46,396 nt of DNA. Origin: Planctomycetota bacterium (lineage in GTDB: Bacteria > Planctomycetota > UBA8742 > UBA2392). The stretch covers positions 1 through 46,396 of the forward strand of contig JADLBZ010000200.1 in the NCBI GenBank assembly GCA_020847415.1. Direction: 5' to 3'. A program made the position numbers and the translations under genes. A model generated the notes under the pieces. It worked only from the letters and a program-made list of their open reading frames with translations. It did no database searches and was not told the DNA's origin. This document shows positions 2,677 to 41,194 of the stretch, one piece after another; position 1 is the first letter of the stretch, and every line of letters begins with the position of its first letter.

Positions 2677-2815
2677 TTGTGGCGTGGGGCTGCGCAGCGG
2701 CCCCCACCACCGTGCTTGACCGCAGCCGCCTGCCAGCCGCACAATCACCCTGCCCCGCCCAAACCCGCGCCCGCCCGGGCCGTTTATACCCAGTGGCTGG
2801 CCAATGGAGGCTGTC

Positions 2816-7258: not shown

Positions 7259-10147
7259 ATGACTGACGCCAATGCACAGGCCAGCCGCCGCAACAAGCGG
7301 CTTGCCGGCGGTTTCGTCGCCCTGGTGGTGGCTGCCGTCATCATCTGGCTGCTCATGCAGCGCTGCCATCCGGTTGAGACGCCCCAAGGCCCGTTCCCGT
7401 TTGACTACTTCCGCGTGAAGGCCGAGGAACTGGGCCGCGACCCCGTGCGCATCAAGGAGTTTGTGGCTGGCCTGACAACGCTGGACTACCAGGGCGACCG
7501 CAAGGGCCCCCTGGGCTGCCTGTGGGACGGCGGCGGCAGCGCCGAGGAGAAGGCGCTGGTGGAAGACGCGCTGATCCAGTGCTGCGACCCCATGGTGGCT
7601 GCACCGGCCCTGTACAACGGGGCGGCAACCAACAAGGCTGCCACGCTGGATGTGCGCCTGAATGTGGAGCGCGCCGGCGGCACCGACGCCAAGGGCATGC
7701 AGACCACCGCGGGTGCGCTGCTGGGCAACGTGCACAGCCTGGAGTTCCCCGCCGAGAACAAGGCCCGCCTGACCCTGCGGCCCTACCGCAGCGAGCCGGT
7801 GGTGATTGAGGTGGACACCGCCGGGGCCGAGGCCCTGAGCCTGAGCTTCCTTGAGGAAGGCGGCCGGTCCAGCGAGCGCGAGTTCTGGCACCGCAAGAAC
7901 CGCGTGGGCTACGCCAACGGCTATCCCGGCGACCGTCACGACTTCGTGGTGCTGCCCGCGCGAGTCGGCAAGTACGTGCGCGAGAAAGAGGAGCTGCGCC
8001 TGAAGGAGGCCGGGCGCGACCCGGCCCAGGACCAGGCCGCCCAAGCCTACCTGACGCTGCTGGACTGGTGCCTCGACAGCGACGCCGAGCTGGAGAAGAT
8101 CGAGAAACGCTTTGCCGTGCGCGCCCAGTTTGACCGGCCCCGCATCGTCTTCCTGGGCCGCCACGAAGGCCCGATCGCCAAACAGCCGCTGCTGACCCTG
8201 GACCTGCGCCAGGACAACGTGCGTTTTGCCGGCGAGGCCGGGCCGGCTCGCGCCGCCACCGAGTGCCGCAGCCGCCTGGAGAGCGCGCTGGAGCAGATGT
8301 TCCTGGAGCGCATCACCAAGAAGCCCTCGAACTCGGCCTTCAGCATCTTCAGCAGTATCAGCGAGGATTATCCCAACAGCGTGGACCGCCGCCTGCGCCG
8401 CGCCCAGCAGGTGCTTTCGGCCCTCAAGCCCGGCGAGAAAGCCCACTTTGCGGCGGCCGGCCGCAACGATGTAAAGGCAACCGTGGAACGCACCGCGCAG
8501 CAGAAGCTGCGCCTGACCGCGGGCGCCATCCGGCCGGAATTCGCGCAGGCGCTGGCGGCCACCGAGGGCGCGATCCGGCTGCCCGCCGGCAAGCCCCTGG
8601 ACGAACAGTTCGACGAAGCCGCGGCGGCCTCGGGCGCGCTGGAAGTGGCGCTGGCCGGGCAGCCCGCCGAGCCGCCCCTGGGGCCGGGCTTTGTGCTGGA
8701 CGTGCGCCTGGAGCTGCAGCCGCTTTCGCTGGTGGCCGGAGGCGCCGGCTTCTCGTTCCGCTGGGGCGAGGGCGACAGCCGCACCGAGCAGGACATCCGC
8801 GTGGTGGACTGCAAGTCCGGCTTGTCGCTGGAGTGGCGTGTGCACGCGGGGCTGCGCCCCGCCAAGGGAAAGCGCGTGATCTCGGCGGCGGCACTGGATT
8901 TGGCGGCTGTTCACAATCCCTGGTACCTGGCCGGCGAGACGGACCCGCAGGAGGCCACGTCGTTTGTGGTTTCGCGGGCGGTGTATGCGGCCCTGAAGGC
9001 CGGCAAGGCAGCGCCCATTGGCCTGTGCGGCCGCTATGGCGCCAACGACGACCACCAGGGCCCGCGGCCCGTCGAGTGGCAGGGCGAGCTGCAGCCGGCC
9101 GGCGAAGGCGAGATCACCGTGAAAGTGAACAACCGCGACGAGAAGCTGCGCGTGCTGCGGGCCAAACTGGGCGACGACACCGTGGCCTTTTTGGACGACG
9201 CGCGCTTCCCGGTCGGCATGGCGGACCGCCTGGTGGAGGTGCACACCACCATTCGCTGCCTGCTGGTGGACCAGCGCGGCGCCCCGGTACCGGGCGCCCG
9301 AGGGGTTGTGGAGGACGTTGAGCTGGAGAGCCGCCTGGACGGCATACTGGAGCTGGCGCCCCGCCCCGGCAAGTACGGCAAGCTGACGTTGCAGATCACG
9401 CTTAACGAGTTGCAGGCCCAGAAGGTGGAGGTGGATCTGTCCGCACCGGGCCTTTCGCCGGTGAAGGTGACCGTGGACCGGCCGCTGACCGAGCTGCTGT
9501 GGCTGGAGCCCTCGCAGGCCGCGCAACTGGATGCCTTGCCGGTCTCGGACCAGGTCAAGCGCCACGCGCGGCGCGACCTGCAGCGCGGCCGCTGCGTGCT
9601 GATTCCCAGCCGCATGGTGGGCGCCTGGCCCCGCCGGACGATTGCCTATTACGCCTACGAGCCCGAATGCGGGTACTCCGTGGGCATCATGGAGCACGGC
9701 CTGTGCGGCGCCGACCCGTTCATCAGCGACCACCTTATGGACGAGTTCAAGAAGGCGGCGGAAGAGAAGCTGGAAGAGGGAATGCAGGAAAAGCTGACCG
9801 TGGACCCCATGGCGGCCTTCCATTGCTTCCGGGGTGCCGTGATCTCGTGGTGGGTGTACAGCGCCTATCGCGTCGAGGGCGACAGCCACACCCAGGCGGT
9901 GCTTCGCGCCCTGAAAGACATGGAGTACTGGGCCGACCAGACCGACTTCTTCCATCATGCGGGGCAGGAGGCCGGCAATCTCATGGGCAACGAGTGGGCC
10001 GGCGGGCAAGCAGCCGACCAGCTTCGCGAACTGGCCAGCAAGGCCATCTTCGGCGCCGGCAGCCAGGAGATGTCCAAGAAGGCCTTTATGCTGGGCTATG
10101 TGTGCGGCCTGCTGTACCTGGCGTCTGAGCTTGGGGAGGGCGAATAA
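7259..10147 (+). CDS. Large membrane-anchored hypothetical protein (962 aa)
   Basis: The ATG at 7259 lies 4 nt after GAGGA (7250-7254). N-terminal TM segment GGFVALVVAAVIIWLLM. One CarboxypepD_reg-like segment (RCLLVDQRGAPVPGARGVV). Hydrophobic C-terminus. No confident family call. Confidence 0.75.
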   Translation: MTDANAQASRRNKRLAGGFVALVVAAVIIWLLMQRCHPVETPQGPFPFDYFRVKAEELGRDPVRIKEFVAGLTTLDYQGDRKGPLGCLWDGGGSAEEKALVEDALIQCCDPMVAAPALYNGAATNKAATLDVRLNVERAGGTDAKGMQTTAGALLGNVHSLEFPAENKARLTLRPYRSEPVVIEVDTAGAEALSLSFLEEGGRSSEREFWHRKNRVGYANGYPGDRHDFVVLPARVGKYVREKEELRLKEAGRDPAQDQAAQAYLTLLDWCLDSDAELEKIEKRFAVRAQFDRPRIVFLGRHEGPIAKQPLLTLDLRQDNVRFAGEAGPARAATECRSRLESALEQMFLERITKKPSNSAFSIFSSISEDYPNSVDRRLRRAQQVLSALKPGEKAHFAAAGRNDVKATVERTAQQKLRLTAGAIRPEFAQALAATEGAIRLPAGKPLDEQFDEAAAASGALEVALAGQPAEPPLGPGFVLDVRLELQPLSLVAGGAGFSFRWGEGDSRTEQDIRVVDCKSGLSLEWRVHAGLRPAKGKRVISAAALDLAAVHNPWYLAGETDPQEATSFVVSRAVYAALKAGKAAPIGLCGRYGANDDHQGPRPVEWQGELQPAGEGEITVKVNNRDEKLRVLRAKLGDDTVAFLDDARFPVGMADRLVEVHTTIRCLLVDQRGAPVPGARGVVEDVELESRLDGILELAPRPGKYGKLTLQITLNELQAQKVEVDLSAPGLSPVKVTVDRPLTELLWLEPSQAAQLDALPVSDQVKRHARRDLQRGRCVLIPSRMVGAWPRRTIAYYAYEPECGYSVGIMEHGLCGADPFISDHLMDEFKKAAEEKLEEGMQEKLTVDPMAAFHCFRGAVISWWVYSAYRVEGDSHTQAVLRALKDMEYWADQTDFFHHAGQEAGNLMGNEWAGGQAADQLRELASKAIFGAGSQEMSKKAFMLGYVCGLLYLASELGEGE

Positions 10148-12015
10148 TGCTGCAACGCGTGTTCTTGCTGCTGGTGGTGGGGCTGTTCTGCCGTGCGGCG
10201 GGCACAGCCGTTGCCCAGGAAGCCCCCGCCCAAGCGCCCCTGACCGGCGAAGTCATCGAGGCCGAGTCCAACGACGTCCGCGACGCCGAGAACCTGCAGC
10301 GCATCGCGCCCGGCGCAACGGTCAGCGGTACGGTCCGCGACGAGCAAGACCGCGATCACTTCTGGTTGGTGGCGGCCGCGGACATGCTCTGCGATTTCCG
10401 CATTACCTGCAGCAAGAAGACCGACGTGGACTTCAACATTGAGGGCCTGGTGTTCGGGCAGCACACGCTGCACAGCCCCGAAGGCAGCGTGTTCTTTCTG
10501 CTGCGCCAGCGCGTGCCCGCCGGAGAGCATTCGCTTTGCATCTCGTGCGGCGGCTATGCCGAGGGCGGAACCTGGCGCCTTGCGATTACCGCCAGCCCGG
10601 AGGTTGAAGACTCCGAGTCCGAACCCAACAACAACCGCGACGAGCCCAGCATCGCCGTGGTCGGCAAGACCATGCGCGGCTTCCACTCACGCAGCGAGAG
10701 CGACTCCGACCACTGGAGCATCGAGGTGCCGCGCCGGGGTGTCTATCGCCTTGCCGTGGAAGGCACCGGTACGCCCAAGCCCAAGGACCTGAACCTGAAG
10801 ACCCGGCTGGAGCCCCCCGAGCTCGGCCGCAAGAAACTGCCCCGCTACTCGTACGAGACCGACGAGCCGCGCCCCGGCGGCTACGTGTACTACCCCGTGC
10901 TGGAGGCAGGCACCTGGGAGCTGGTCTTCTTCATGAGCCACAGCACCACCGAGGGCTTCACCTACACGTTTGTGCTGGAGCCCTTCACGCCCGGCGTGGA
11001 TGACGCGCTGACCAAGCAGGCGCGCGATGCCATCGCCCGTGGCGAGGCCTGGCTGCAGACCACGGTACCCGCCAAGGTGCGAGAGAGTCATGTCGTGGCT
11101 GTGGAGGGCCTGGTGCTGGCGGCGCTCTCGGGCGTGAAAGGCAACAAGGATCTCCAGGCGGTCCTGGCGGCCGAGTATGTGCAGTGGTTCGCAAAGAAAG
11201 CTGTTGCAGACGCCGAGGTCTCGTGGCGCGGCCGGAACCTGGGGACAGCCAGCGACAACTTGTATGAGGCAGCCATTGCCACCCTGGCCCTGGCTGAAGC
11301 CGCCGAGGCCGGCATCGCGGGTGCCAAGGAGCTGTGCGAGCGCCAGGTGCGCTTCCTGCTGGCAGCGCAGCAGTCCACGGTGAAAGACCCCGCCTGGAAG
11401 GGGCCCATCCAGCGCCACAACGAGTATCACGGCGGGTGGCGCTACGGGCCCGACGAAGACACCGGCGACATCTCCATCGCGGGCTGGTGCCTGGTGGCCC
11501 TGCTGGCCGCCGACGCCGCCGGAGTCAAGGTGGATGGCATGCGCGACGCCGTGGCCTGGGGCACCGAGTTCGTGAAACGTTGCACAAGCGAAAGCGGGGA
11601 GTTCACCTACCTGCCCAGCCACTCAGACGGCAACAACATCCGCAACTCCATCGGCCTGTTGCTGTACTTGCTGATGGACGAGCCACTGGAAGAGCAGGCA
11701 GGCGCCGTGTGGGACCTGGACCACCACCTGCCCTCGGGCACCCAAGTGGACGACGGCGGCGAGTACATCCTCTATTACGCGTACTACGGCACGCGCCTCA
11801 ACTACCTTCGCGGCGGATTCCAGTGGGAAGCCTGGCGCAGCGTGATGATCCGGCAAGCCCTGCGCCTGCAGGGCGGCGACGGGCGCTGGCCGGCCATCGG
11901 CCAGGAGAAGGGTGACGGCGGCGACCGCTACGCCACGGCCCTGAGTGTCATCATCCTGCGTATCTGCCTGAATGAAGTGCCGGGCTATCTGCGGCCGGAA
12001 GCCCGGGGGTTCTGA
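10147..12015 (+). CDS. Exported protein: two PPC (pre-peptidase C-terminal)-like domains plus a prenyltransferase/squalene-cyclase-like alpha/alpha toroid
   Basis: The start overlaps the upstream TAA (ATAATG, 10144-10149). Signal peptide present. PPC-like EAESND...DHFWL and ESEPNNNRDE...DHWSI. QW-type motifs FLLAAQ...HGGWRYG and RLQGGDGRWP. Confidence 0.8.
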   Translation: MLQRVFLLLVVGLFCRAAGTAVAQEAPAQAPLTGEVIEAESNDVRDAENLQRIAPGATVSGTVRDEQDRDHFWLVAAADMLCDFRITCSKKTDVDFNIEGLVFGQHTLHSPEGSVFFLLRQRVPAGEHSLCISCGGYAEGGTWRLAITASPEVEDSESEPNNNRDEPSIAVVGKTMRGFHSRSESDSDHWSIEVPRRGVYRLAVEGTGTPKPKDLNLKTRLEPPELGRKKLPRYSYETDEPRPGGYVYYPVLEAGTWELVFFMSHSTTEGFTYTFVLEPFTPGVDDALTKQARDAIARGEAWLQTTVPAKVRESHVVAVEGLVLAALSGVKGNKDLQAVLAAEYVQWFAKKAVADAEVSWRGRNLGTASDNLYEAAIATLALAEAAEAGIAGAKELCERQVRFLLAAQQSTVKDPAWKGPIQRHNEYHGGWRYGPDEDTGDISIAGWCLVALLAADAAGVKVDGMRDAVAWGTEFVKRCTSESGEFTYLPSHSDGNNIRNSIGLLLYLLMDEPLEEQAGAVWDLDHHLPSGTQVDDGGEYILYYAYYGTRLNYLRGGFQWEAWRSVMIRQALRLQGGDGRWPAIGQEKGDGGDRYATALSVIILRICLNEVPGYLRPEARGF

Positions 12016-16196: not shown

Positions 16197-17651
16197 ATGG
16201 AATCGCCCGAACAACCAGCCTTTCGCGTTGCCGTGGTCGGCGCCGGCATCTCGGGCCTGTCCTTTGCCTACCGGCTGCAGCGTGAGGCCCAGAAGGCCGG
16301 GCGCCCGGTCGCGGTCACGCTGCTTGAAGCGGGGGCCCGCCCGGGCGGCGTCATTGAGACCCGCCGCACCCACGGCTGCCTGCTGGAACAGGGGCCGGAC
16401 TGCTGGGCCAGCAACAAGCCCGCGGGGGTGGAGCTGGCCCGCGAACTGGGCCTGGAGGCCGAGCTGATCGGCACCCGGCCCGGCGTGCGCCGCAGCTTCA
16501 TCCTGCACCAGGGCGAGTTGCGCCGCCTGCCCGAGGGCTTCTTCCTGATCTCTCCCATGAGTGTGCGCGCCGTGGCTGCCACGCCGCTGCTGACGCCCTG
16601 GGGCAAGCTGCGCATGGCCCTGGAGCTGTTCATGCCCGCGCGCCGCGAGGACAGCGACGAGTCGCTGGCCGACTTCGTACGCCGCCGCTTCGGGCGCGAG
16701 GCCCTGGCACGCATTGCCCAGCCCATGGTGGCGGGCATCTACACCGCCGACCCCGAGAAGCTCAGCCTGAAGGCCACCTTCCCGCAGTTTCTGCAGTGGG
16801 AGCGCGAACAAGGCAGCGTAATCCGCGCGCTTCGGGCCAGGGCCGCCGCCGAGAAAGCCTCCGGCTCGGCCACGGGCGGCGAGGTCTCCCGCGCCGCCGG
16901 GCCGCGCTACGGCTTGTTCGTCACCCTGCGCGGCGGCCTGGACGGCCTGCCGCGTGCCCTGGAAAGGGCGCTGACGCCGGGCACCCTGCGGCTGACCAGC
17001 ATAGTGGCGGGCATGCGGCGCGAGGGGCAGGGCTGGGAGCTCAAGGTCGGCAGCACAGCCGAGCATTACGACGCCCTGTGCCTGGCCCTGCCCGCGCACC
17101 GTTCGGCGGCCCTGCTGCGCGAGCCCGAGCCGGCCCTCTCGGCCATGCTGGCCGAGTTTGAGTACGCGGGCTCGGCAGTAGTGAACTTCGTCTTTCGCCG
17201 CAGCCAGGTGGCGCACCCCATGGACGGCATCGGCGCGGTCATCCCCGCCGCCGAGCATCGCAAGCTGGTGGCCTTCAGCTTCAGCAGCGTGAAGTTTGAG
17301 GGCCGCGCGCCCGACGGCATGGTGGTACTGCGAGCCTTCATGGGCGGGGCCTTGAACCCCGAGCTGGCCGGCAAGTCCCCCGCCGAGCTTGCTTCCATCG
17401 CGCTGGCCGAGCTGCGTGACCTGGTGGGCTTGCGCGGCGAGCCCCTGCATGTGGAAGCAGCCAGCCACCACGGCACCATGGCCCAGTATCACGTGGGACA
17501 CCTGGACCGCGTGGCCCGCGTGCGCGCGGCGCTGGCAGCCGCGCCGCGGCTGTGCGTGATCGGCAACGCCTTTGACGGCGTCAGCATCCCGGATTGCATC
17601 CGCAACGCCAACGACGCAGCCCGCGCCCTGCTGAGGCAGCTCGCGCCATGA
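16197..17651 (+). CDS. hemY: FAD-dependent protoporphyrinogen/coproporphyrinogen oxidase (HemY type)
   Basis: 484 aa. N-terminal dinucleotide fold VAVVGAGISGLSFAY...LLEAGARPGG. C-terminal HemY-like segment (GNAFDGVSIPDCI). Confidence 0.85.
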   Translation: MESPEQPAFRVAVVGAGISGLSFAYRLQREAQKAGRPVAVTLLEAGARPGGVIETRRTHGCLLEQGPDCWASNKPAGVELARELGLEAELIGTRPGVRRSFILHQGELRRLPEGFFLISPMSVRAVAATPLLTPWGKLRMALELFMPARREDSDESLADFVRRRFGREALARIAQPMVAGIYTADPEKLSLKATFPQFLQWEREQGSVIRALRARAAAEKASGSATGGEVSRAAGPRYGLFVTLRGGLDGLPRALERALTPGTLRLTSIVAGMRREGQGWELKVGSTAEHYDALCLALPAHRSAALLREPEPALSAMLAEFEYAGSAVVNFVFRRSQVAHPMDGIGAVIPAAEHRKLVAFSFSSVKFEGRAPDGMVVLRAFMGGALNPELAGKSPAELASIALAELRDLVGLRGEPLHVEAASHHGTMAQYHVGHLDRVARVRAALAAAPRLCVIGNAFDGVSIPDCIRNANDAARALLRQLAP

Positions 17652-20623: not shown

Positions 20624-21229
20624 CTATCGGGGCAAGGTCACCCGCACCACCTTGTCGGCGTGCTCGATCACGGCTTTCACCCGGCGCGTCCACGCCGCCT
20701 GGAACCGCGCATGCGCGCCAGCATCGCCCGCCAGTGCGGGCTTCAGGTTCGCGCTGATGTCCGGCTCGTGGGGCAGCGCATCCGCAAGCGCCTCGACCAC
20801 CACACGGGCCCCGTTGTCGGCGCGCTCGAACGTGACGGCGCCAAAGGGTGCGGCTGTGGCATCAAAGCGCAACAGGTTCTGGCGCGACCAGTGGCCGGCC
20901 AGGCCGCGGAATCCCTCCACGCCGCCGGCGCCAGTGATGTAGCCGATCACCCGCCCCAGCGGGCCGTTGGCAAAAGCGTCCGGCGCCGAGTGCACGGTGA
21001 CGCGCACTCCGCCTCGCACGGGCGTGCCTGTCGGCCACAGCGCCTTCAGGCCCGCGCGGGCCATCTCAAAGGCGGTCGCCACGGTCGGGCACAGGTGGCC
21101 CGCGTAGCGCCCCGCGTCCTCCAGCGTGTACTGGATCGTGCCGCCTTCTTTGAAGCCGAGGAACTCCGCCAAGGGGTCCTTCACGGTGATGGGCGCGGCT
21201 GTCGCGGCTGCACGGTCCAGATCAGTCAT
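20624..21229 (-). CDS. Hypothetical protein, possibly FmdE-like
   Basis: The ATG at 21229 overlaps the upstream stop by 8 nt (ATGACTGA). GHLCPTVATAF resembles the FmdE HxCP motif. The functional call is weak. Confidence 0.55.
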   Translation of the reverse strand: MTDLDRAAATAAPITVKDPLAEFLGFKEGGTIQYTLEDAGRYAGHLCPTVATAFEMARAGLKALWPTGTPVRGGVRVTVHSAPDAFANGPLGRVIGYITGAGGVEGFRGLAGHWSRQNLLRFDATAAPFGAVTFERADNGARVVVEALADALPHEPDISANLKPALAGDAGAHARFQAAWTRRVKAVIEHADKVVRVTLPR

Positions 21230-23246
21230 GGCGGGCTCCTTGCAATGCCTGTTGCAGCTCATTCATCACCTGCGCCAGCGGCACGCCGTTGTGCTCTGCC
21301 GCGTGGGCAATGCTTTCGGCGCCGCCGCAGCAGGCATCCAGCCCCAGGCGCGAGAAAACCGGCACCGTGGCCGGCCAGCGGCGGGCGGCCTCCGCCACGC
21401 TCAGGGCCGGGTCAATGGCAGGCGCCGCTGTTGCCGCTGTGGCCGCCGGCGGTTGCGGCTGGGCAGGGCCGCCCTGGGCGGCCTTGAGGTCCGCCAGCAG
21501 GTTGTCCAGGTTCACTTTCTGCAGCTCACAGGCCTGGCGCAGGGTCACGTTGCGGGCCAGGGTGGCACGCAGCATGGGGTTCTTGAGCAGGGCAAAGCCG
21601 TGCTTCACAAACACGTCCAGCAGGTGGGGCCAGCGTTGCAGCACGGCGCCCACGCGGGCGTCGGCCTCCAGCACCACTTCGCCCGAGATGCTCGGCGGAG
21701 CAGGCGGGGCCACAATGAAGCGCCCCACATGAACCGCCCACAGGCCCAGTGCCACCAGCGCCGCAGTGCCGCTCAGGGGCAGCAGCTTCAAGGCAAAGGG
21801 CACCTTGTCGCTGGTCCCTTCCAGCACGACGCGCGACAGCACGGCGAAGATCAGCAGGCCGAAGATCAGGTTCAGGCGGCTGAGCTTGTTGGGGTCTACG
21901 CCATTCAGCGTGGGCACCACTTTGGCCGAGACGCCCACAATCATGGTGGCGATGAAGCCCAGGGTCATGGCATGACGCAGCGCGCCGTGGTAGCCGTGGC
22001 CGAAGCTGCCCGCCACGCCGGCGATGTACAGGGGCTCCGCCACCCACAACAGCACACCCACGGCAAACCACAGGTGCGCCATGCGCACAAACTTGATGCT
22101 GCGGTCGTTGCCCGTGGGCTTGCGCCATGGCTTGAAGCCCGCCAGCAGCCACAAGAACAGCCCAGCCACGGCAAGCGTGCCCAGCCAGTACAGGCCCTCC
22201 CACATATGGTAGGAGCCGACGCCGGAAACCAGACCGCGCCGCGTGGCCACCATCAGCGGAAAGCAGACGATGACACAGGAAATGGCCAGGTTGAGTGGCA
22301 CGAACACGCGCTTGAAGCGACTCTCGCCGGGGTCAGCAAACCCGAACACCGGGGGCAGGAAACGCAGCATGACGCCGAAGATGATCATGGCTGCCACGCC
22401 GTACAACTGCACCACGCGCAAGGGCTCCTGGAACATGGCCACTTGCAGCAGTATGGCGGCTGCCTCCGGCGCAAATGCCAGGCGCGCGAAGTGCACAGCC
22501 TCAGCCACGATGCTGAAGGCAAACCAGCCTGTCGCCGCCAGCACGTACCAGTCGTAGGCCTCGAGCTTCTTGCCCGAGGACTTGTAGGTGCGGTTGATGA
22601 CCAGGGCGAAGAGGCCCGCCGCTGCCAGCTCCAGCGCGCTTCCCGCCAGGGCCACAGCCGCCGGCCCCGGTCGCGAGTTGGCCTGCAAGTCGTAGGCAAA
22701 CGCCGACCCCAGTACGTGCATGGCCACGCCCGCCACCATGAGCAGGAACGAAAGGCCGGCCAGCTTGGGGCCCCACAGGGCCGCATGTTTGAAGCGCGGC
22801 AGGGCCTGGTAGCCGAAGCCGATGATGAACAGGCCCATGAAGCCAAAGACCATGGCGTGGCCATGGGCGTTGATGAAGCTCAGGGGAGGTCCAACCACGC
22901 TTCCGATGCGCGCCGCGGTGCCCATCAGCACCGTGCCCAGCAGCGCCCCCGGCAGCACAGCCATGACCATGCCCACCAGGAAGAAGGGCCGGTAAATCAC
23001 GTCGCCCAGGCTGGGGCGGTAGTCGGCAGTGGGAGCCTGGTCGGGGTTGCGGATGGCGTCGTCGATCTCGCGGCAGAGGCCGTCGTAATCCACGCCGTGG
23101 GTCTTGGCAAAGAACTCCAGCGTCTCGGAGGGCCCGTGCTCGCCGCCGCAGCCTTTCAGGCCGTAGCGGTCCAGGATGCCGCGTACCTGAGGGTGAGCCT
23201 GCAGCAGGTCCGGCAGGAGCAGGTTCGGATGCAGGGTGACGGCCAT
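21222..23246 (-). CDS. nnrS: NnrS-family membrane protein fused to DUF1858 (N-terminal) and DUF1858 + ScdA_N (C-terminal) modules
   Basis: The ATG at 23246 lies 4 nt after GGAGG. Multi-TM core with NAHGHAMVFGF. N-terminal LLQAHPQVRGILDRYGLKGCGGEHGPSETLEFFAKTHGVD. C-terminal WPATVPVFSRLGLDACCGGAESI (ScdA/RIC N-domain CCGG motif). Confidence 0.8.
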   Translation of the reverse strand: MAVTLHPNLLLPDLLQAHPQVRGILDRYGLKGCGGEHGPSETLEFFAKTHGVDYDGLCREIDDAIRNPDQAPTADYRPSLGDVIYRPFFLVGMVMAVLPGALLGTVLMGTAARIGSVVGPPLSFINAHGHAMVFGFMGLFIIGFGYQALPRFKHAALWGPKLAGLSFLLMVAGVAMHVLGSAFAYDLQANSRPGPAAVALAGSALELAAAGLFALVINRTYKSSGKKLEAYDWYVLAATGWFAFSIVAEAVHFARLAFAPEAAAILLQVAMFQEPLRVVQLYGVAAMIIFGVMLRFLPPVFGFADPGESRFKRVFVPLNLAISCVIVCFPLMVATRRGLVSGVGSYHMWEGLYWLGTLAVAGLFLWLLAGFKPWRKPTGNDRSIKFVRMAHLWFAVGVLLWVAEPLYIAGVAGSFGHGYHGALRHAMTLGFIATMIVGVSAKVVPTLNGVDPNKLSRLNLIFGLLIFAVLSRVVLEGTSDKVPFALKLLPLSGTAALVALGLWAVHVGRFIVAPPAPPSISGEVVLEADARVGAVLQRWPHLLDVFVKHGFALLKNPMLRATLARNVTLRQACELQKVNLDNLLADLKAAQGGPAQPQPPAATAATAAPAIDPALSVAEAARRWPATVPVFSRLGLDACCGGAESIAHAAEHNGVPLAQVMNELQQALQGARHD

Positions 23247-23426
23247 GGGTCCTCCGGTGTGGCATCCACATTGAAATGGGGGGTGTTCGTTCCGTCCCGC
23301 TGTCGCGTCAGGCCGCGACTGGCGCTCGCGACACGCGCCCACCGGGCTTCTGTCGCTCACTGTCGCGGAAAAGACCGCAAGCGATGGATGGAGCTACCCC
23401 TTTATTCAACCGTGATGAACCTCCAG

Positions 23427-23465: not shown

Positions 23466-23554
23466 AAGCGCAACGAGCGTGCACGGGATTCACCTTTGCA
23501 GCAACCAGATAAACCGTATAAAGTGGCAAAAGGACCAAGCGCAAAGGAGTGCCC

Positions 23555-24328
23555 ATGCCCGCAGCCGTTGCTTTCGCCACCGAGGCCACCGTCCTGTTTG
23601 AGCAGGGGGACCACCGCTGGATCTGGCTGGGAACCGACGACGGCGCCGGCGAAGGCGTGCCCGCGAACCAGTACCTGGTGCAAGATCGCGGCCGCGGCCT
23701 GCTGCTGGACCCGGGCTCGGTGCTGGATTTTGCCCGCACCATTTCCAACCTCTCGCGCTTTGCCGAGCCTGCCACGCTGGATTACCTCTTCTTCAGCCAC
23801 CAGGACCCGGACGTTTCTTCGGGCGTGCCCATGTGGGCGGGCGTGACCAAGGCCAAGCTCGTCATGCCGGCCATCTGGGCGCGCTTCCTGCCCCACTTTG
23901 GCGAGTTTGACCAGACGCGCATCCAGGGCGTGCCCGACAAGGGCAGCACACTGGCGCTGGGCAAGTCCGAGCTGCGGGTGATCCCGGCGCACTTCCTGCA
24001 CTCCACGGGCAACATCGTGCTCTACGATCCTGTGGCCCGCTACCTGTTCACGGGCGACATCGGCACGGCCATCATGCCGCCCGGCGACAACAGCCTGTAT
24101 GTGCAGGACTTCAGCAAGCACCTCAAGCTGATGGAGGGCTTCCACAAGCGCTACATGGCCAGCAACGCCGCCTGCCGCAACTTCGTGGAGCGCATCAACC
24201 ACCTGGCCATTGACGCGATTGTGCCCCAGCACGGGCGCATTATCCGCGGCGACGACGTGAAGCGCTTCAAGGACTGGTTCCGCGAGCTGCGTTGCGGGGT
24301 GGACCTGCTGGCCGAGATGTATCGCTAG
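23555..24328 (+). CDS. Metallo-beta-lactamase-fold di-metal protein, ODP-like (oxygen-binding di-iron protein family candidate)
   Basis: The ATG at 23555 lies 5 nt after AGGAG (23545-23549); the track starts at GTG 23549. Metal-ligand-like [26 protein letters not shown] and VPQHGRII. A soluble MCP gene follows directly. Confidence 0.7.
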
Positions 24329-27085: not shown

Positions 27086-27114
27086 TTTGCCGGTTTCCTG
27101 TCCTAGAAATCGTA

Positions 27115-27317
27115 GGGGCGCAGCATGCTGCGCCCGACGTGCGGCACCAAGCCAATTTGCAGGCGACGCACGCCTCGTCCCCACGGCGCAACAAAATGAA
27201 GCAGGGGCGCAGCATGCTGCGCCCGACGTGCGGAACCAAGCCGATTTGCAGGCGACGCACGCCTCGTCCCCACGGCGCAACAGAATGAAGTAGGGGCGCA
27301 GCATGCTGCGCCCCTAC
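27115..27317. repeat. 89-bp tandem repeat (2 full copies plus a partial third), each headed by a GC palindrome
   Basis: GGGGCGCAGCATGCTGCGCCC starts at 27115, 27204 and 27293, giving a period of 89. The two inter-palindrome segments are near-identical. The third copy forms a 28-bp perfect palindrome GTAGGGGCGCAGCATGCTGCGCCCCTAC (27290-27317). Confidence 0.9.
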
Positions 27318-27369
27318 CAAGAACACATTGAGCCGTCTGGGACAGGACACCAGCTGACCCGCGCCGGCG

Positions 27370-28395
27370 CTATCCGCCGGCGTTAGCGGAAGGCTCCGCC
27401 AGCAACCGATCCACGGCAATGCGCAGCAGGTGCTCCTTGGCGCCGCCCACGGCCACGAAGGCCACGCGGCCCTGCTTGTCCAGCACGAACACGCTGGGAA
27501 TGCCGGTCACGCCGTAGGCCTTGAAGTCTTCCTTCGTGCCCACTGCAAAGGGATAGCGCACGCCTGTGTTCTTGCGGAAGTCAGCCAGGTGCTGCAGGTA
27601 GGCAGCCTCGTCCATGTCACGGCTGGCAGTGCCGCCGCGCTTGCCCTCTTTCAGTTCCTGCATGTTCACGGGCAGATAGCCGTTCTTGTAGACCTGGGTA
27701 AGTCCGATTACCGCCAGCCCCTTTTCCGCACGCTCCGCGTGCAGCGCGTCCAGGCCGGGCATGGACGCAAGGCAGGGCCCTCACCACGTGGCCCAGCAAT
27801 CCAGCAGCACCACCTTGCCCTTGAAGGCGGACAGCTTGGCGGGCTCGGCCCCCAGCCAGGTCTTGGCGTCCACCTCAGGCGCGGGCTTGCCCACCAGGGC
27901 GGCGCGCATCTGGATGTAGCCGCGGGCACGGCCGCGGGCATCCTTCTTGGGGTCGGCATCCTCGGGGATGGCCTTCAGGGCCTCGGCGTAGCTGGCCTGG
28001 GCGGCGTCGTAGTTGCCGCGCAGGGCCTGCACGTCGCCAATGCCCATGCGCACGGTGGGCTTGTGTTCTTCAGGCACCTCGGCGAACAACTCGCCCAGGC
28101 GCTTCTCGGCGTGCTCCAGTTCGCCCGTGGAGGGCAGGGCAATGGGCAGCCAGGTGTGCCGCACGTAATCAGCCATGCCGCACTTGGGCAGCTTCTTCAG
28201 GAGCAGCTCCCAGCGCTCGACGGCGCGCTTGGGGTTGGTCTCCAGGGCGTCGCGGGCCGATTCATAGAGCCCCACTTCCAGCAGCTCGGCCTCGTCGGGA
28301 AGCTTGAAGGCCTCAACCTCCGCGGCGTCGAACAGCTTGCAGAAGGTGTCCGTGGCGGCGTTTTCCTTCTCACTCCACTCGCGCGAGACCTTCAT
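27370..28395 (-). CDS. TlpA/ResA-like thioredoxin-fold protein with an N-terminal helical (TPR-like) domain; in-frame TGA at the first CxxC position (selenocysteine candidate)
   Basis: Track ORFs 27781..28395 and 27370..27762 share one frame. Read-through gives VVLLDCWATW-TGA-GPCLASMPGLDAL...YGVTGIPSVFVLDKQGRV, i.e. the WCGPC motif with TGA (27783-27781) in place of the first Cys. Confidence 0.7.
27746..27768 (-). promoter_or_regulatory. Candidate bacterial SECIS hairpin
   Basis: The mRNA can form GCGUCCA-UGCCCGGCC-UGGACGC (7-bp stem, 9-nt G-containing loop), starting 12 nt after the UGA. Confidence 0.45.
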
Positions 28396-28434
28396 GGCTT
28401 CGTCCTGCGCGGCTTTCTTGGCGGCCTCGTCCGT

Positions 28435-28617
28435 CTACCCCCGGGACTTCTCAAAGTCAGCGCTGCGGGCTTCCTGGCCCTTGGCGCGCACCGCCAGCAG
28501 CTCGGCGTAGGCAGCGCGGGCAGTGTCGGCCGGGTCCTCGGGCGGGTCATCGGCCCTGGCGGGCAGAGCAAGCAGAAGCAGCATCAGGCAGGGAAACAGA
28601 CGCAAAAGGGGTTTCAT
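28435..28617 (-). CDS. Signal-peptide-bearing 60-aa leader ORF, in frame with the TlpA-like ORF but closed by TAG
   Basis: The ATG at 28617 lies 4 nt after GGAGG. Encodes MKPLLRLFPCLMLLLLALPARADD.... TAG lies at 28437-28435. The 13 codons between the TAG and the ATG at 28395 are open and coding-like (TDEAAKKAAQDEA). Confidence 0.4.
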   Translation of the reverse strand: MKPLLRLFPCLMLLLLALPARADDPPEDPADTARAAYAELLAVRAKGQEARSADFEKSRG

Positions 28618-37575: not shown

Positions 37576-40500
37576 CTAGCGAAGTTCCAGCTTCGCGCGT
37601 TCTCCCTCTTTCAGGGTAATCTCACCGCTGATTGGCTCGTGGCCCATCACGTCCACCACGATCCGCAACGTGCCCGCGGGCAGGGGACCGATCTCGCGGC
37701 CGTCCGGCGAGGGCTCGCCCTTACCCTCCAACAGTGCAGCCAGGCGGCCGTGCGGGCGGTACTCCACCCCATCCGCACCGAACACCCGCACGCTCGCGGA
37801 TTCCAGCTCGGCCCGGGGCAGGCCCTCCACCACCAGCACCGCGCGGGCCGCGGGAGTCACAGGCATTTCCAGCGACGCCTGGTTGCCCGAAACCTCTACC
37901 TCCGCGACCGTGGGTACCAGCAGCGGCCCGCCAACCTCCACGCGGTAGCGACCTGTCGAAAGGCCCTCAAACACGAGTTGCGCGTCCTTGCGCAGGAGCT
38001 GCGGCTGTGAGGCCAGGGCGATGTTGCTGCCCGCCGCGAACAAGCGAGCCATCATGACCAACTGCGGCTTGCGGGCTTCTGCATTCTCGAACATGGAGGC
38101 AGGCATGCCCTTCAAGGCCACCTTCAACGTGCTGCCGCCCGGCTCCAGGGCCAGTGTCACGGCCCGGTCCCGTGCCGTGTCCACGGTGATGCCGACTGTC
38201 GCACGGCCCGGTGCGGTAGCCACCAGGGCGTACTTGCCGCGCGGCATGCCCTTGAATACCTGGGTGCTGCCCTCGCCCTCAAGGCGCCGGGGCTCCATCA
38301 TGGGCTCCAATGGGTCCGGGCCGAAAGGATACTCCAGCACCGGCAGCACGTTCAGCCGCACGGTCTTCAGGTCCAGGCCCTCGCCCTTGATCGTGACCGC
38401 CAGCTCGTCGCACACCAGTGTGCGCTCCAGGACTTCGACGCCGTCCCAGCCGCTGAAGCGGACCTCGTGCCGGACCGCCCCGCTGCTGCCCCTGGGCATG
38501 ATCCACGCGTAGTAGTCGCCCGGCGCAATGCCGGAGATCTCGAAGCAGCCCTGTTCGTCCACGTTGCCGCGGTGCATCGCGTCCGAAGCGCCGGTACCCA
38601 TCAGGAACACGCCCTTGATTTTCAGGTCCGGGCAGGTGATGCAGCCCTTGAACACGTTGCCGGGAGCACGCTGCGAGTAGTCAATGTCCAGGGTTGCGGC
38701 CTGGCCCTCTGCCACTTCCACGCGGCGCTTTTCCTTCAGTGCGGGCGACGGCGTGTCGAGGTTCTTGATCAGCACCACATACGAGCCGGGCTCGATGCCT
38801 TCAAACAGATAGCGCCCTTCGGAGTCCGTCTTGCCGCTCTTCACGTGACGAAGTTCCGGGGTGCCGAGGAAGACCGACGCGTCGGCCATGGGCTTGCCGT
38901 CCGGCCCGGTTACGAGGCCGGAGATCGAGGTTCCGCCCAGGTTCAGGCGCACCACCAGGGGCTCATCGGCCACCAGCACAGAAACGCGCGCAGAGCCCTT
39001 TTCGTGGGAAGCGATCAACACGTAGCTGCCGGGGGCGACGCGCTCGAAGCGGATCTCGCCGGTCGCGGAAGGCTCCGGGCCGTAGCCGGCGTAGCGGGTC
39101 AGCTCGGGGTTCTCGGCATCGGCGGCGTAGAACAGCATGGCGCCCACTCCCTGCACCAGGGTCGCGCCGGAGCCGTCGTGCACCGTGCAAGTCACTGTGC
39201 TTCCCTTGTGCAGCACCAGCCGCAAGTCGGTCTGGTCGGCCGCAGCAGCCTCCACCTTCACCCGGCACTCGGCCAGGCCGGGAGCGCGGGCCACCAGGTC
39301 GGCAGGGTCGCCAGGGGCCACCGTGAACTCAAACCGGCCGAGTTCGTTGCATGCCAGGTACAGGCTGGTCTCGCTGGCACCCTTGTGATCGGGGGTCTCG
39401 CGCAGGCGCACCATGGCCCCCGCCAGAGGCTTGCCGCTCGCGTCCACCACCTGCCCGCCCACGCGGCGGCCGGCCGCCAGCTTGATGGTGCCGAGGTCCG
39501 TGCAGCCGTTGCCGGAAGGGACGGCAATCTCTACGGGCCGGAAGCGCGGGTGCCGCATGCGCAACTGGACCGGCGACTCCTCAGCCTTGTTCAGGTTCAC
39601 TGTGTGGCGGCCCTGCTCGTCCAGCTCGGTCGTCATGCCGCCACCCCAGCGGGTGTTGCCGGCGATGACGGTGATGTACCCGGGCAGTTCTTCCTGCAGG
39701 GGCGGGTCGGTGCTGAACACGACGTAACGGCCCAGCGACTCCATGACCAGCAGAGGCTTATGGCCGGCGCGAAGGGGCATCGCGGCGTCCTTGCCGCTGA
39801 CGTAGCCCGACTTGCTGGCCACCAGCGGAACCAGGCTGCCCGCGGCGTCCTTCTTCACGGCAGCGACCAGGACGAACTTGCCCGTAGCGTCGCTTACCGT
39901 GCTTTCCGGCGCGCGAGCCAACGGGATGCACTCCGCCGCGTCAATCGGCGGCGCATCTATGCCCGAGGCCGGCAGTGCAAACGGCCCAATGGCGCCCACT
40001 TCAGGAGTACCCACCCCAAACGACCCCAACATGCCGAATCGAAAACCGACGGGCTTCTCCGGCCCGACCTTGGCCACTACAACTCGGGCGCCCGCCACGG
40101 GCTTGCGGTCCTGGTCTACGACCGTCCCTTCAATGCGCAGTTCGCGCTCATCCGCGGCCGGCACAGAGCCGGCGCCGGCCGAGACTGAGTTGCCGTTGTT
40201 TCCGGCAGGGGTGCCCGCAGCCTGGTTGCCCTGGTTGGCGCGGTTCCCGGCCGCCTGCGTGTTCCCGGCAGCGCCGCTCTTGCGGCTGTTGGCCGGCTGG
40301 TTGTCCTGCGCGAGCGCAATCGGCCTTGTGTCACCGGCTGCCGGCGGTTCCAGCATCTTCCACGCCACCAGGCCGCCTCCTGCTACCAGGACCGCCAGCA
40401 ACGCCAGCATGAGCGCGATGTTGCCGCCTGTTTTGGTGCCAATACTTGCCATGATTGCTGCCTCCATTGTCCGTAACACGTTTTCCGGGACCTCCTGCCG

Positions 40501-41076
40501 GGCGGCGCCGGCCTGCAGGGCGGTCTCCAGGTCCACGGGGGCCGGCACCGTTGCCAGGCCGCCCGCCAGAAGCGTTTCTCTCAGTCGTTCCAGGGCCGTG
40601 CGCTGGCGCGTCTTGACCGTGCCTTCGGGTATGCCCAGCGCGTGTGCCGTTTCTGTGGCGGTAAAACCCTGGGCAAAGCGCAGCAGCACTACTTCGCGCA
40701 GGTCGTGCGGCAGCGCACTGGCGGCCTCAAAGGCCGCGGCAGCCAGTTCGTTGCTGGGGTTGGCCGTCATGGCGGACTCGGCGGCTTGGGCCTCGCGCTC
40801 GCGGCGGAGTTGCCGGTCGCGCTTCACATCGCGGGCCAGGTTGGTGAGCACGCGAAATGCCAGGGTGCGCAGCTCGCCCGCTTCGGCCAGCGACTTGCGC
40901 GACCGGTGCAGGCGAATGAACGCCTGCTGCACGGCATCCTGGGCATCGCCCGGGTCGCCCAGGAGACTGCGGGCATAGCGGTACATTCCGGGGCTCTCTT
41001 CTCGCACGAACCGGTGCCAGGCGTACTGGTCGCCGTTTCGAAGCCCCTCGCGCAATGGTGCGGTGCTGGTTGACAT
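37576..41076 (-). CDS. ECF sigma factor fused via one TM helix to about 900 aa of CarboxypepD_reg-like repeats
   Basis: The ATG at 41076 lies 6 nt after GGGAGG. Region 2 DAQDAVQQAFIRLHRS. Region 4 LREVVLLRFAQGFTATETAHALGIPEGTVKTRQRTALERLR. TM IALMLALLAVLVAGGGLVAW. N/Q/G-rich linker. Repeats such as IEGTVVDQDRKPVAGARVVV, VGGQVVDASGKPLAGAMVRL and ISGLVTGPDGKPMADASVFL. Confidence 0.85.
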   Translation of the reverse strand: MSTSTAPLREGLRNGDQYAWHRFVREESPGMYRYARSLLGDPGDAQDAVQQAFIRLHRSRKSLAEAGELRTLAFRVLTNLARDVKRDRQLRREREAQAAESAMTANPSNELAAAAFEAASALPHDLREVVLLRFAQGFTATETAHALGIPEGTVKTRQRTALERLRETLLAGGLATVPAPVDLETALQAGAARQEVPENVLRTMEAAIMASIGTKTGGNIALMLALLAVLVAGGGLVAWKMLEPPAAGDTRPIALAQDNQPANSRKSGAAGNTQAAGNRANQGNQAAGTPAGNNGNSVSAGAGSVPAADERELRIEGTVVDQDRKPVAGARVVVAKVGPEKPVGFRFGMLGSFGVGTPEVGAIGPFALPASGIDAPPIDAAECIPLARAPESTVSDATGKFVLVAAVKKDAAGSLVPLVASKSGYVSGKDAAMPLRAGHKPLLVMESLGRYVVFSTDPPLQEELPGYITVIAGNTRWGGGMTTELDEQGRHTVNLNKAEESPVQLRMRHPRFRPVEIAVPSGNGCTDLGTIKLAAGRRVGGQVVDASGKPLAGAMVRLRETPDHKGASETSLYLACNELGRFEFTVAPGDPADLVARAPGLAECRVKVEAAAADQTDLRLVLHKGSTVTCTVHDGSGATLVQGVGAMLFYAADAENPELTRYAGYGPEPSATGEIRFERVAPGSYVLIASHEKGSARVSVLVADEPLVVRLNLGGTSISGLVTGPDGKPMADASVFLGTPELRHVKSGKTDSEGRYLFEGIEPGSYVVLIKNLDTPSPALKEKRRVEVAEGQAATLDIDYSQRAPGNVFKGCITCPDLKIKGVFLMGTGASDAMHRGNVDEQGCFEISGIAPGDYYAWIMPRGSSGAVRHEVRFSGWDGVEVLERTLVCDELAVTIKGEGLDLKTVRLNVLPVLEYPFGPDPLEPMMEPRRLEGEGSTQVFKGMPRGKYALVATAPGRATVGITVDTARDRAVTLALEPGGSTLKVALKGMPASMFENAEARKPQLVMMARLFAAGSNIALASQPQLLRKDAQLVFEGLSTGRYRVEVGGPLLVPTVAEVEVSGNQASLEMPVTPAARAVLVVEGLPRAELESASVRVFGADGVEYRPHGRLAALLEGKGEPSPDGREIGPLPAGTLRIVVDVMGHEPISGEITLKEGERAKLELR

Positions 41077-41194
41077 GGTTGGCCTCCCGGGGCGCATTAT
41101 GCCCCGGACGCCAGCTACACGCGGCCCGCACTGGTTTCGATTTGGGAATCCGGACAAATCTTCGCGCCAGGTCCGGGGCCCGCAAACAACGCAA

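Follow-up and report, generated by a model that had tools for sequence, protein, structure and literature searches.

The question raised by this locus is whether an in-frame TGA ends a gene or encodes selenocysteine (Sec) in a thioredoxin-fold protein. The locus lies on the minus strand of the Planctomycetota contig JADLBZ010000200.1, and the whole stretch of 46,396 nucleotides (nt) that was analyzed is called the window here. One minus-strand frame runs from an ATG at 28617 to a stop codon at 27370, and its translation is broken only by a TAG and a TGA. Two open reading frames (ORFs), 27781..28395 and 27370..27762, lie in this frame, and the gap between them is made up of the TGA at 27783-27781 and the six sense codons GPCLAS. 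The read-through product is ...KGKVVLLDCWATW-TGA-GPCLASMPGLDALH...GIPSVFVLDKQGRV, with the stretch ...KGKVVLLDCWATW-TGA-GPCLASMPGLDAL... directly around the TGA, so that the TGA falls at the first Cys of the WCGPC motif of TlpA/ResA proteins and the motif becomes W-A-T-W-U-G-P-C. By homology the whole gene occupies 27370..28617 (415 codons; start and end match those of the relative P0001 and the locus L001) and comprises a signal peptide, a helical domain resembling tetratricopeptide repeats (TPR) and a TlpA/ResA-like thioredoxin domain. The TGA at 27781..27783 is codon 279 and is the candidate Sec codon (U279) at the place of the nucleophilic Cys, where orthologs carry TGA or TGC; the TGC at 27772..27774 gives the resolving Cys of U-G-P-C, and every Sec form has an unchanged G-P-C directly behind its TGA. 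We consider it very likely that the TGA of this gene family encodes Sec, and the evidence comes from the orthologs of the gene, from the selection acting on the region beyond the TGA and from an RNA hairpin which follows it.

A preliminary description of the window, made from the letters alone, had pointed out the two same-frame ORFs split by the TGA and six codons, and the sequence, the ORF list and the translation agree with it. It had taken ATG 28395 as the start, which was wrong: ATG 28395 is an internal conserved Met and not the gene start, because the frame continues upstream to ATG 28617, where a signal peptide begins and which corresponds to the start of P0001, an 83%-identical ortholog. 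The in-frame TAG at 28437-28435 had also been overlooked. The full-length Cys orthologs have 393-434 amino acids (aa). Elsewhere in the window TGA is an ordinary stop, as had been stated: the ORF 10147..12015 ends in TGA (12013-12015), and so does 16197..17651 (17649-17651), whose amine-oxidase domain covers residues 18-479 of 484. TGA is not globally recoded, because these other genes end in it. When the whole window was scanned for in-frame stops between coding-like sequence, no genuine case came up besides the TAG at 28437-28435 and the TGA. The TGA at 26265-26263, which stands between same-frame ORFs, was considered as a second recoded TGA and rejected, being the boundary of two adjacent genes.

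The relatives were first found by a search with the read-through protein, and they formed two groups. The first is of full-length proteins of 358-434 aa with WATWCGPC, and the second is of six proteins (40-83% identity, 274-289 aa) which have no Pfam domain and whose last residues are exactly ...WATW. In the DNA of the WATW-ending relatives there is a TGA at that place every time, followed by in-frame GPC and 130-137 further sense codons. At the fetched TGA-form loci the rest of the thioredoxin domain was called as a separate downstream ORF each time, and the database gene calls end at ...WATW, which is the splitting by gene callers that the preliminary description had predicted. Genome and metagenome collections were scanned with a profile of the N-terminal domain alone, which is blind to the Sec/Cys codon, and the loci were classed by the codon directly after ...ATW. 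That codon is TGA in 14 loci in addition to the window (L001-L007, L009, L010, L039-L042 and L044) and TGC in 15 loci of the family (L008, L011-L017, L043, L046-L049, L076 and L077, the last two added later). The earlier text had proposed that homologs be aligned and their equivalent codons recorded as TGC/TGT or TGA, and both TGA and TGC occur. The named sources of the family loci are almost all metagenome-assembled genomes (MAGs) of Planctomycetota, and the TGA forms include the Planctomycetota MAGs L006, L007, L009 and L010.

The closest comparison is offered by L002, which carries TGA, and L076, which carries TGC. They come from two different assemblies, show 76% nucleotide identity and share ten neighbouring genes in identical order, including a Glu/Leu/Phe/Val dehydrogenase, an extracytoplasmic function (ECF) sigma factor, a Kelch-repeat protein, a DSE-like_N protein and a large TPR protein. 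Because of these shared neighbours, L002 and L076 can be regarded as orthologs which differ in Sec versus Cys. In a rough neighbour-joining tree the Sec forms make five clades of one subfamily, Cys forms are nested within this set, and every deeper outgroup has Cys; such dynamic exchange between Sec and Cys has been described in bacterial selenoproteins (PMC1794560). The recoded position is the redox-active Cys, which is a hallmark of Sec/Cys pairs (PMC1794560; PMC13188914). As the same codon is TGA in 14 other loci, the pattern is far beyond chance. The alternative that an ordinary TlpA gene of Cys type acquired its TGA by chance nonsense mutation, or shows it through a sequencing error, would need only a single-base change from TGC, but its probability is negligible, since the same TGA is present in 14 other independently assembled loci of five clades, down to ~40% protein identity, and strong purifying selection acts downstream of it. 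One of these loci, the metagenome contig L044, differs in another respect: from L044:424 onward the frame after the TGA has 520 codons without a stop, where the other loci have ~135, which points to a fusion to the following gene or to loss of the stop codon.

The selection beyond the TGA was estimated from close Sec-Sec pairs by the Nei-Gojobori method. The ratio of nonsynonymous to synonymous substitution rates (dN/dS) is 0.05-0.31 downstream of the TGA and 0.07-0.32 upstream, and the two ranges are indistinguishable. The three codons after the TGA always encode G-P-C, with the synonymous variants GGG/GGC/GGA and CCC/CCA, while the first downstream ATG, or the called start of the downstream ORF, varies in position from 18 to 63 nt after the TGA across the loci. 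Without read-through the Redoxin domain is not recovered in full. These data indicate that the region beyond the UGA is translated, and the downstream dN/dS, the conserved G-P-C and the unconserved ATG together exclude a chance nonsense mutation as well as a two-gene arrangement. In such an arrangement the TGA would be a true stop and the locus would make two proteins, one TPR-like and secreted, with W278 as its last residue, and the other a small thioredoxin-fold fragment starting from the ATG at 27762. Automatic callers do annotate every TGA-form locus in this way, and in the window an ATG stands six codons past the TGA. Against this, the six intervening codons encode a conserved G-P-C-L with synonymous variation and are hence translated, the start of the downstream ORF is not conserved, the fragment would have neither the nucleophile of the active site nor the fold's first strand, and the syntenic orthologs are single proteins of 393-434 aa with Cys at this codon. 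We therefore hold two separate proteins to be highly improbable.

The third line of evidence for Sec is a hairpin resembling the selenocysteine insertion sequence (SECIS) of bacterial genes. In the window it lies at 27746..27768 on the minus strand, GCGUCCA-UGCCCGGCC-UGGACGC, with a 7-bp stem, a free energy of -12.6 kcal/mol and its first base 12 nt after the UGA, exactly where the preliminary description had placed it. The loop may be drawn with 9 nt, or with 3 nt and a mini-stem, and the spacing from UGA to loop is 19-22 nt. Across the family, a position-restricted search asked for one hairpin with a 5' arm beginning 8-22 nt past the codon. Such a hairpin occurs in each of the 12 distinct Sec sequences at -10.2 to -15.5 kcal/mol, starting at +11 to +15, whereas the 11 distinct Cys sequences have a mean of -7.1 kcal/mol and only L013 and L049 are comparable to the Sec forms. 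The closest Cys orthologs L076 and L077 reach -7.6 and -5.4 kcal/mol, against -15.5 for their Sec ortholog L002. The five Sec clades have five different stems at one place, namely GCGUCCA/UGGACGC, UCGUCCAUG/CAUGGACGA, GCGCUUCC/GGAAGCGC, GGGCUCCA/UGGAGnCCC and GGCAUGC/GCAUGCC. When pairs were counted in the register of the window, 81% of cells were paired, while shuffles gave 65.6 +/- 2.9% (0 of 500 as high as the real count) and sliding of the 3' arm gave no more than 38%; double compensatory changes are found in 3 of the 7 pairs, and the covariation score of 0.329 compares with 0.11 or less after sliding. One of the two strong hairpins among the Cys forms deserves a separate mention: L013, a TGC form which is sister to a Sec clade, has at L013:10691-10750 a hairpin GCAUCCC...GGGAUGC of -12.4 kcal/mol in the SECIS position, and this may be a 'fossil' SECIS from a recent Sec-to-Cys conversion.

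The hairpins were also compared with the published model of the bacterial SECIS (bSECIS), which has a stem of 4-16 bp, an apical loop of 3-9 nt, 16-37 nt from the UGA to the loop, a minimum free energy (MFE) of -7.5 kcal/mol or lower and a G at loop position 1 or 2 (PMC13188914). Every Sec clade agrees with this model in geometry, spacing (19-23 nt) and energy, and three of the four published criteria hold in all of them. The G of the loop is present in clades B, C and E. In the window, where the preliminary description had called the position of the hairpin compatible with a bacterial SECIS, stem, loop size, spacing and MFE agree with the model, and the loop G is found only if the open 9-nt loop UGCCCGGCC is drawn. 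A subset of the known bSECIS elements departs from the model as well (PMC13188914). RNAalifold did not recover the hairpin from a codon-register alignment of the Sec forms, because the register of the hairpin shifts by 4-5 nt between clades. A match to the Rfam family htlv_FSE at 15.4 bits was rejected as a sub-threshold chance match which merely recognises the hairpin.

Several observations weigh against Sec at this codon and in this copy of the gene. The Mann-Whitney test by which the energies of the Sec and Cys hairpins differ (p = 4e-4; 12 Sec and 11 Cys sequences) is uncorrected for phylogeny, and the loop-G rule fails in clade D. Taken alone the hairpin of the window is unexceptional for a sequence of 68% GC, with z = -0.24 against dinucleotide shuffles and z = -0.67 against synonymous resampling. 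No Rfam SECIS family was found in the whole window at the gathering threshold or in 27650-27850 at E <= 10. No selA, selB, selD or tRNA-Sec gene is present in the 46-kb window or in the flanks of 37 loci. Finally, owing to the TAG at codon 60, the copy in the window may not make a functional exported protein. Some of these points have an explanation. Whole-segment MFE and resampling of synonymous codons separate the Sec from the Cys forms only weakly, and the z-scores of single sequences are modest because the amino-acid sequence has co-evolved with the hairpin. The absence of Sec machinery near the locus is expected, because sel genes need not be linked to selenoprotein genes, and complete sets of genes for Sec insertion are known in Planctomycetes from the strains P1 and P2, Gemmata obscuriglobus and Isosphaera pallida (PMC4807772).

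The absence of Sec machinery from the window and the flanks and the partial fit of the hairpin to the consensus bSECIS model would also agree with decoding of the TGA by a near-cognate tRNA or a suppressor, as Trp, Cys or another residue and not as Sec. This we regard as very unlikely. TGA is an efficient ordinary stop for other genes of the window, the recoded position is exactly the redox-active Cys, where Trp or Gly would be fatal to the active site, simple leaky read-through has no use for a conserved hairpin at SECIS spacing, and complete Sec gene sets are reported in the phylum. The candidate UxxC selenoprotein of TlpA/ResA type that the preliminary description had put forward is supported by the TGA/TGC pairs at one codon among the orthologs, the syntenic L002 and L076 included, by the purifying selection after the TGA and by a hairpin which tracks the TGA.

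The TAG at 28435..28437 on the minus strand is codon 60, and it lies between the leader region and the mature domain, as a premature stop or a sequence error. The aligned codon of L001 is GCC (Ala) in a poorly conserved linker, and the orthologs all have sense codons there; P0001, the closest database relative, has an equivalent leader and reads on through the position of the TAG. TAG is not reassigned in the window, because it ends about half of the window's candidate genes: in a list of ORFs with high G+C at third codon positions (GC3), which includes a few antisense shadows, TAG is the stop of about half and is more frequent than TGA. This share of TAG is above what we expected for 68% GC. 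The TAGs at 45363-45365 and 45666-45668 were considered as another case of a TAG-interrupted gene and rejected, as they belong to the antisense shadow of a plus-strand gene. In 44300-46396 a high GC3 in a stop-ridden minus frame indicates this plus-strand gene, which continues beyond the 3' end of the window and is therefore missing from the ORF lists.

What the TAG means for the copy in the window is less settled than the meaning of the TGA. The gene may be dead, with the TAG a real nonsense codon, possibly fixed after loss or disuse of the Sec machinery, and the TGA an undecoded relic. This is a possibility of some substance, though not the favoured one. It is consistent with a TAG which parts the signal peptide from the mature protein, with the frequent use of TAG as a genuine stop in the window and with the sense codons of all orthologs, and the dN/dS between the window and L001, 0.16 before the TGA and 0.28 after it, is above the 0.05-0.14 of other pairs of similar dS. 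Yet the copy keeps all the family-invariant residues and an intact hairpin, and has no frameshift and no second nonsense codon. A relative-rate test with eight outgroups counted 11 changes unique to the window and 13 unique to L001 (p = 0.84), none of them at invariant columns. Relaxed selection on the window lineage was rejected on this test, and the raised dN/dS cannot be attributed to that lineage because the test shows no acceleration of it. A single A/G-to-T change from AAG or GAG suffices for a TAG, and a base error of this kind would give the same codon. Two origins are left for the TAG, a nonsense mutation of very recent date or an error of base calling or assembly. A genuine TAG in a gene which still works, either by read-through of the UAG (a UAG and a Sec-UGA in one mRNA) or by a restart at ATG 28395, seems quite improbable. 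A restart there, if true, would give a leaderless cytoplasmic TPR-TlpA selenoprotein, a change of compartment relative to all orthologs.

The domains of the encoded protein were assigned from the read-through translation and from models of orthologs. The predicted signal peptide MKPLLRLFPCLMLLLLALPARA (28552..28617, minus strand) was read from the sequence with an inferred cleavage site; a hydrophobic leader is present in every ortholog and forms a detached N-terminal helix in the ortholog model. The window copy has this leader (28617-28552), but the TAG separates it from the remainder. An all-helical N-terminal domain follows at 27883..28530 (minus strand; boundaries approximate, from ortholog models), which consists of a long helical hairpin and about eight helices in TPR-like pairs, and the thioredoxin-fold domain of Redoxin or TlpA-ResA type is at 27433..27894 on the same strand, from Pfam Redoxin and the ortholog model. 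The Redoxin match has an E-value of 1.1e-17 over residues 242-395 of the read-through protein, with further matches to AhpC-TSA, Thioredoxin_8 and Thioredoxin. The TlpA/ResA-type redox motif with TGA at the nucleophilic Cys, which had been recognised from the letters, is confirmed. The AlphaFold model of the Cys ortholog P0003 has a predicted local distance difference test (pLDDT) value of 91 and a predicted template modelling (pTM) score of 0.85, and that of P0001 has pLDDT 82.5. The P0003 model shows a leader helix, a helical hairpin at 29-100, eight helices at 114-244 and the thioredoxin fold at 265-410, which has the central insertion of TlpA/ResA type and its active site at the N-terminus of helix 1. 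The thioredoxin part of the ortholog model superposes by Foldseek on ResA/4nmu with a template modelling (TM) score of 0.83-0.87 and a root-mean-square deviation of 2.0-2.7 A, and the matches by sequence in the Protein Data Bank (PDB) are 3kcm, ResA and TlpA.

With the full-length model Foldseek returned matches to the thioredoxin domain only, and the N-terminal domain was therefore given a model and a search of its own. Alone it matched only generic TPR domains at weak scores (E >= 0.015), with the 120-aa YbgF TPR at TM 0.70-0.75. No Pfam match was found in the N-terminal part of the window protein, and faint TPR_2/TPR_16 matches were found in a few homologs. On these models the N-terminal part would be a TPR-like helical module without a specific solved relative. 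The preliminary description had viewed the fusion to a helical domain as a less usual trait of this locus, which does not hold: the domain, ~245 aa with the leader and interrupted in the window copy, is conserved through the whole family and is its defining architecture. The scores against NCBIfam models remain below the cutoffs, with 56.9 bits against 170 for ResA (NF002854), 51.3 against 230 for TlpA (NF047696) and 46.6 against 123 for DsbE (TIGR00385), and NF041054 gives 34.5 bits against 300, over the active-site stretch only. The protein is best placed by sequence in the TlpA/ResA superfamily, outside the ResA, TlpA, DsbE and NF041054 groups.

The following mechanism may be proposed. The family would be an exported one of Planctomycetota, built of a signal peptide, a TPR-like domain and a TlpA/ResA-type thioredoxin domain, and in one subfamily the attacking Cys of WCGPC would be replaced by a UGA-encoded Sec. 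As in the established bacterial pathway, SelB-GTP-Sec-tRNA(Sec) would bind the hairpin and deliver Sec at the UGA. The selenolate of U279 would attack a substrate disulfide outside the cytoplasm, Cys282 would resolve the selenenylsulfide, and re-reduction would probably come from a membrane electron donor of CcdA/DsbD type. The TPR-like domain probably selects or recruits a partner or substrate. No cytochrome-maturation or DsbD gene is adjacent within the window, and the neighbouring genes differ between clades. Taken as a whole, a Sec-UGA in an exported planctomycete TPR-TlpA/ResA reductase, with the caveat of the TAG for the copy in the window, is in our judgement a likely explanation.

During the survey a second and distinct thioredoxin-fold group with TGA at the first Cys was noticed, with the motif FWG[NH]W-TGA-[GP]PCRAMYPHERSLVKRL. 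Its members are L027:4978-4980, L054:3029-3031, L059, L062:1090-1092, L065:3226-3228, L066, L067, L069 and L070; their frames are open over a long stretch upstream, some include a signal peptide, and L027 comes from a Planctomycetota MAG. Strong hairpins at +8..+22 are found only in L054 (-14.7) and L062 (-9.6). This group is probably another UxxC selenoprotein family.

Some features around the gene may also be recorded. About 50 nt after its stop codon there is a terminator-like GC-rich palindrome at 27289..27318 (minus strand), which is one copy of a repeated palindromic element: downstream of the gene, 27112-27317 holds three copies of the perfect GC-rich palindrome GGGGCGCAGCATGCTGCGCCCC, exactly 89 nt apart and within two tandem 89-nt units that are 96% identical, and these look like an intergenic repeat of the repetitive extragenic palindromic (REP) type. 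A few kb from the TGA gene, a fusion of NnrS, DUF1858 and ScdA_N (21222-23360, minus strand) adjoins an ODP-family protein of metallo-beta-lactamase fold and a methyl-accepting chemotaxis protein (MCP)-signalling protein (with 23549-24328 on the plus strand), and the region looks like a cluster for sensing nitric-oxide or oxygen stress. Further off, at 37576-41157 on the minus strand, an ORF of 1193 aa has N-terminal sigma-70 regions 2 and 4 (ECF-like) followed by several CarboxypepD_reg and Ig-like domains, so that a sigma-factor module is joined, which is unusual, to a large and presumably extracytoplasmic repeat region; two other CarboxypepD_reg proteins are at 2804-4495 and 4912-7137.

The practical value of these data lies first in annotation. 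Pipelines split each TGA-form member into a 'hypothetical protein' ending in WATW and a small orphan ORF, so that an exported selenoenzyme stays invisible in the databases; its recognition corrects the annotations and adds to the evidence of selenium use by Planctomycetota. L002 and L076 also provide a clean natural Sec/Cys pair, which can be used for studying what Sec buys an extracytoplasmic thiol-disulfide reductase, and how a hairpin is gained or decays within coding sequence. The known picture of selenoprotein biology is left unchanged.

UxxC thioredoxin-fold proteins are the commonest class of newly found bacterial selenoproteins, and the present family has to be compared with them. A listing of 2006 already contained 'Thiol:disulfide interchange protein', 'Prx-like thiol:disulfide oxidoreductase' and thioredoxin selenoproteins (PMC1794560), and a catalogue of 2026 adds 'Redoxin family protein (PF08534, UxxC)' and 'UGC-containing TlpA family' (PMC13188914). 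The catalogued UxxC redoxin and thiol:disulfide-interchange selenoproteins are like the protein of the window in having Sec at the first Cys of CxxC, a fold of TlpA/redoxin type, Cys homologs, a hairpin immediately 3' of the UGA within the coding region and the same Pfam matches (Redoxin, AhpC-TSA, Thioredoxin). The family of the window is unlike them in its conserved N-terminal TPR-like domain of ~220 aa and in that its confident members come from Planctomycetota MAGs and metagenomes. NF041054, the 'ResA-like WAxxUGC motif-containing protein', is also ResA-like, with Sec in a WAxxU context and an N-terminal extension (model length 354), but the motif in the window is WATW-U-G-P-C (UxxC) and not UGC, and the protein, being below the cutoff, is not a member.

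ResA of Bacillus subtilis and TlpA of Bradyrhizobium (PDB 1st9, 4nmu, 1jfu) share with the window protein the fold and the WCGPC-type motif, and the leader of the window protein would imply an extracytoplasmic location like theirs. They use Cys, are membrane-anchored single-domain proteins and serve the maturation of cytochrome c or Cu(A), whereas the window protein has a TPR-like domain and probably Sec, with no cytochrome-maturation genes nearby. Within the same phylum, the planctomycete P1 (2016) had split Sec candidates described as 'thiol-disulfide isomerase-like thioredoxin' (PMC4807772, S9 Table), which likewise consist of two adjacent ORFs arising from an in-frame TGA and have their closest NCBI matches with Cys; in a comparison made by annotation, the two P1 candidates differ from the window gene in being listed as 'SECIS present: no' (PMC4807772). 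The family is possibly an uncatalogued subfamily of the known UxxC kind. In a reading milder than that of a working gene with a genuine TAG, it may be an uncatalogued family of Planctomycetota with syntenic Sec/Cys switching, in which the SECIS hairpin re-forms in shifted registers, and if so it would offer a natural series for how SECIS elements arise and decay.

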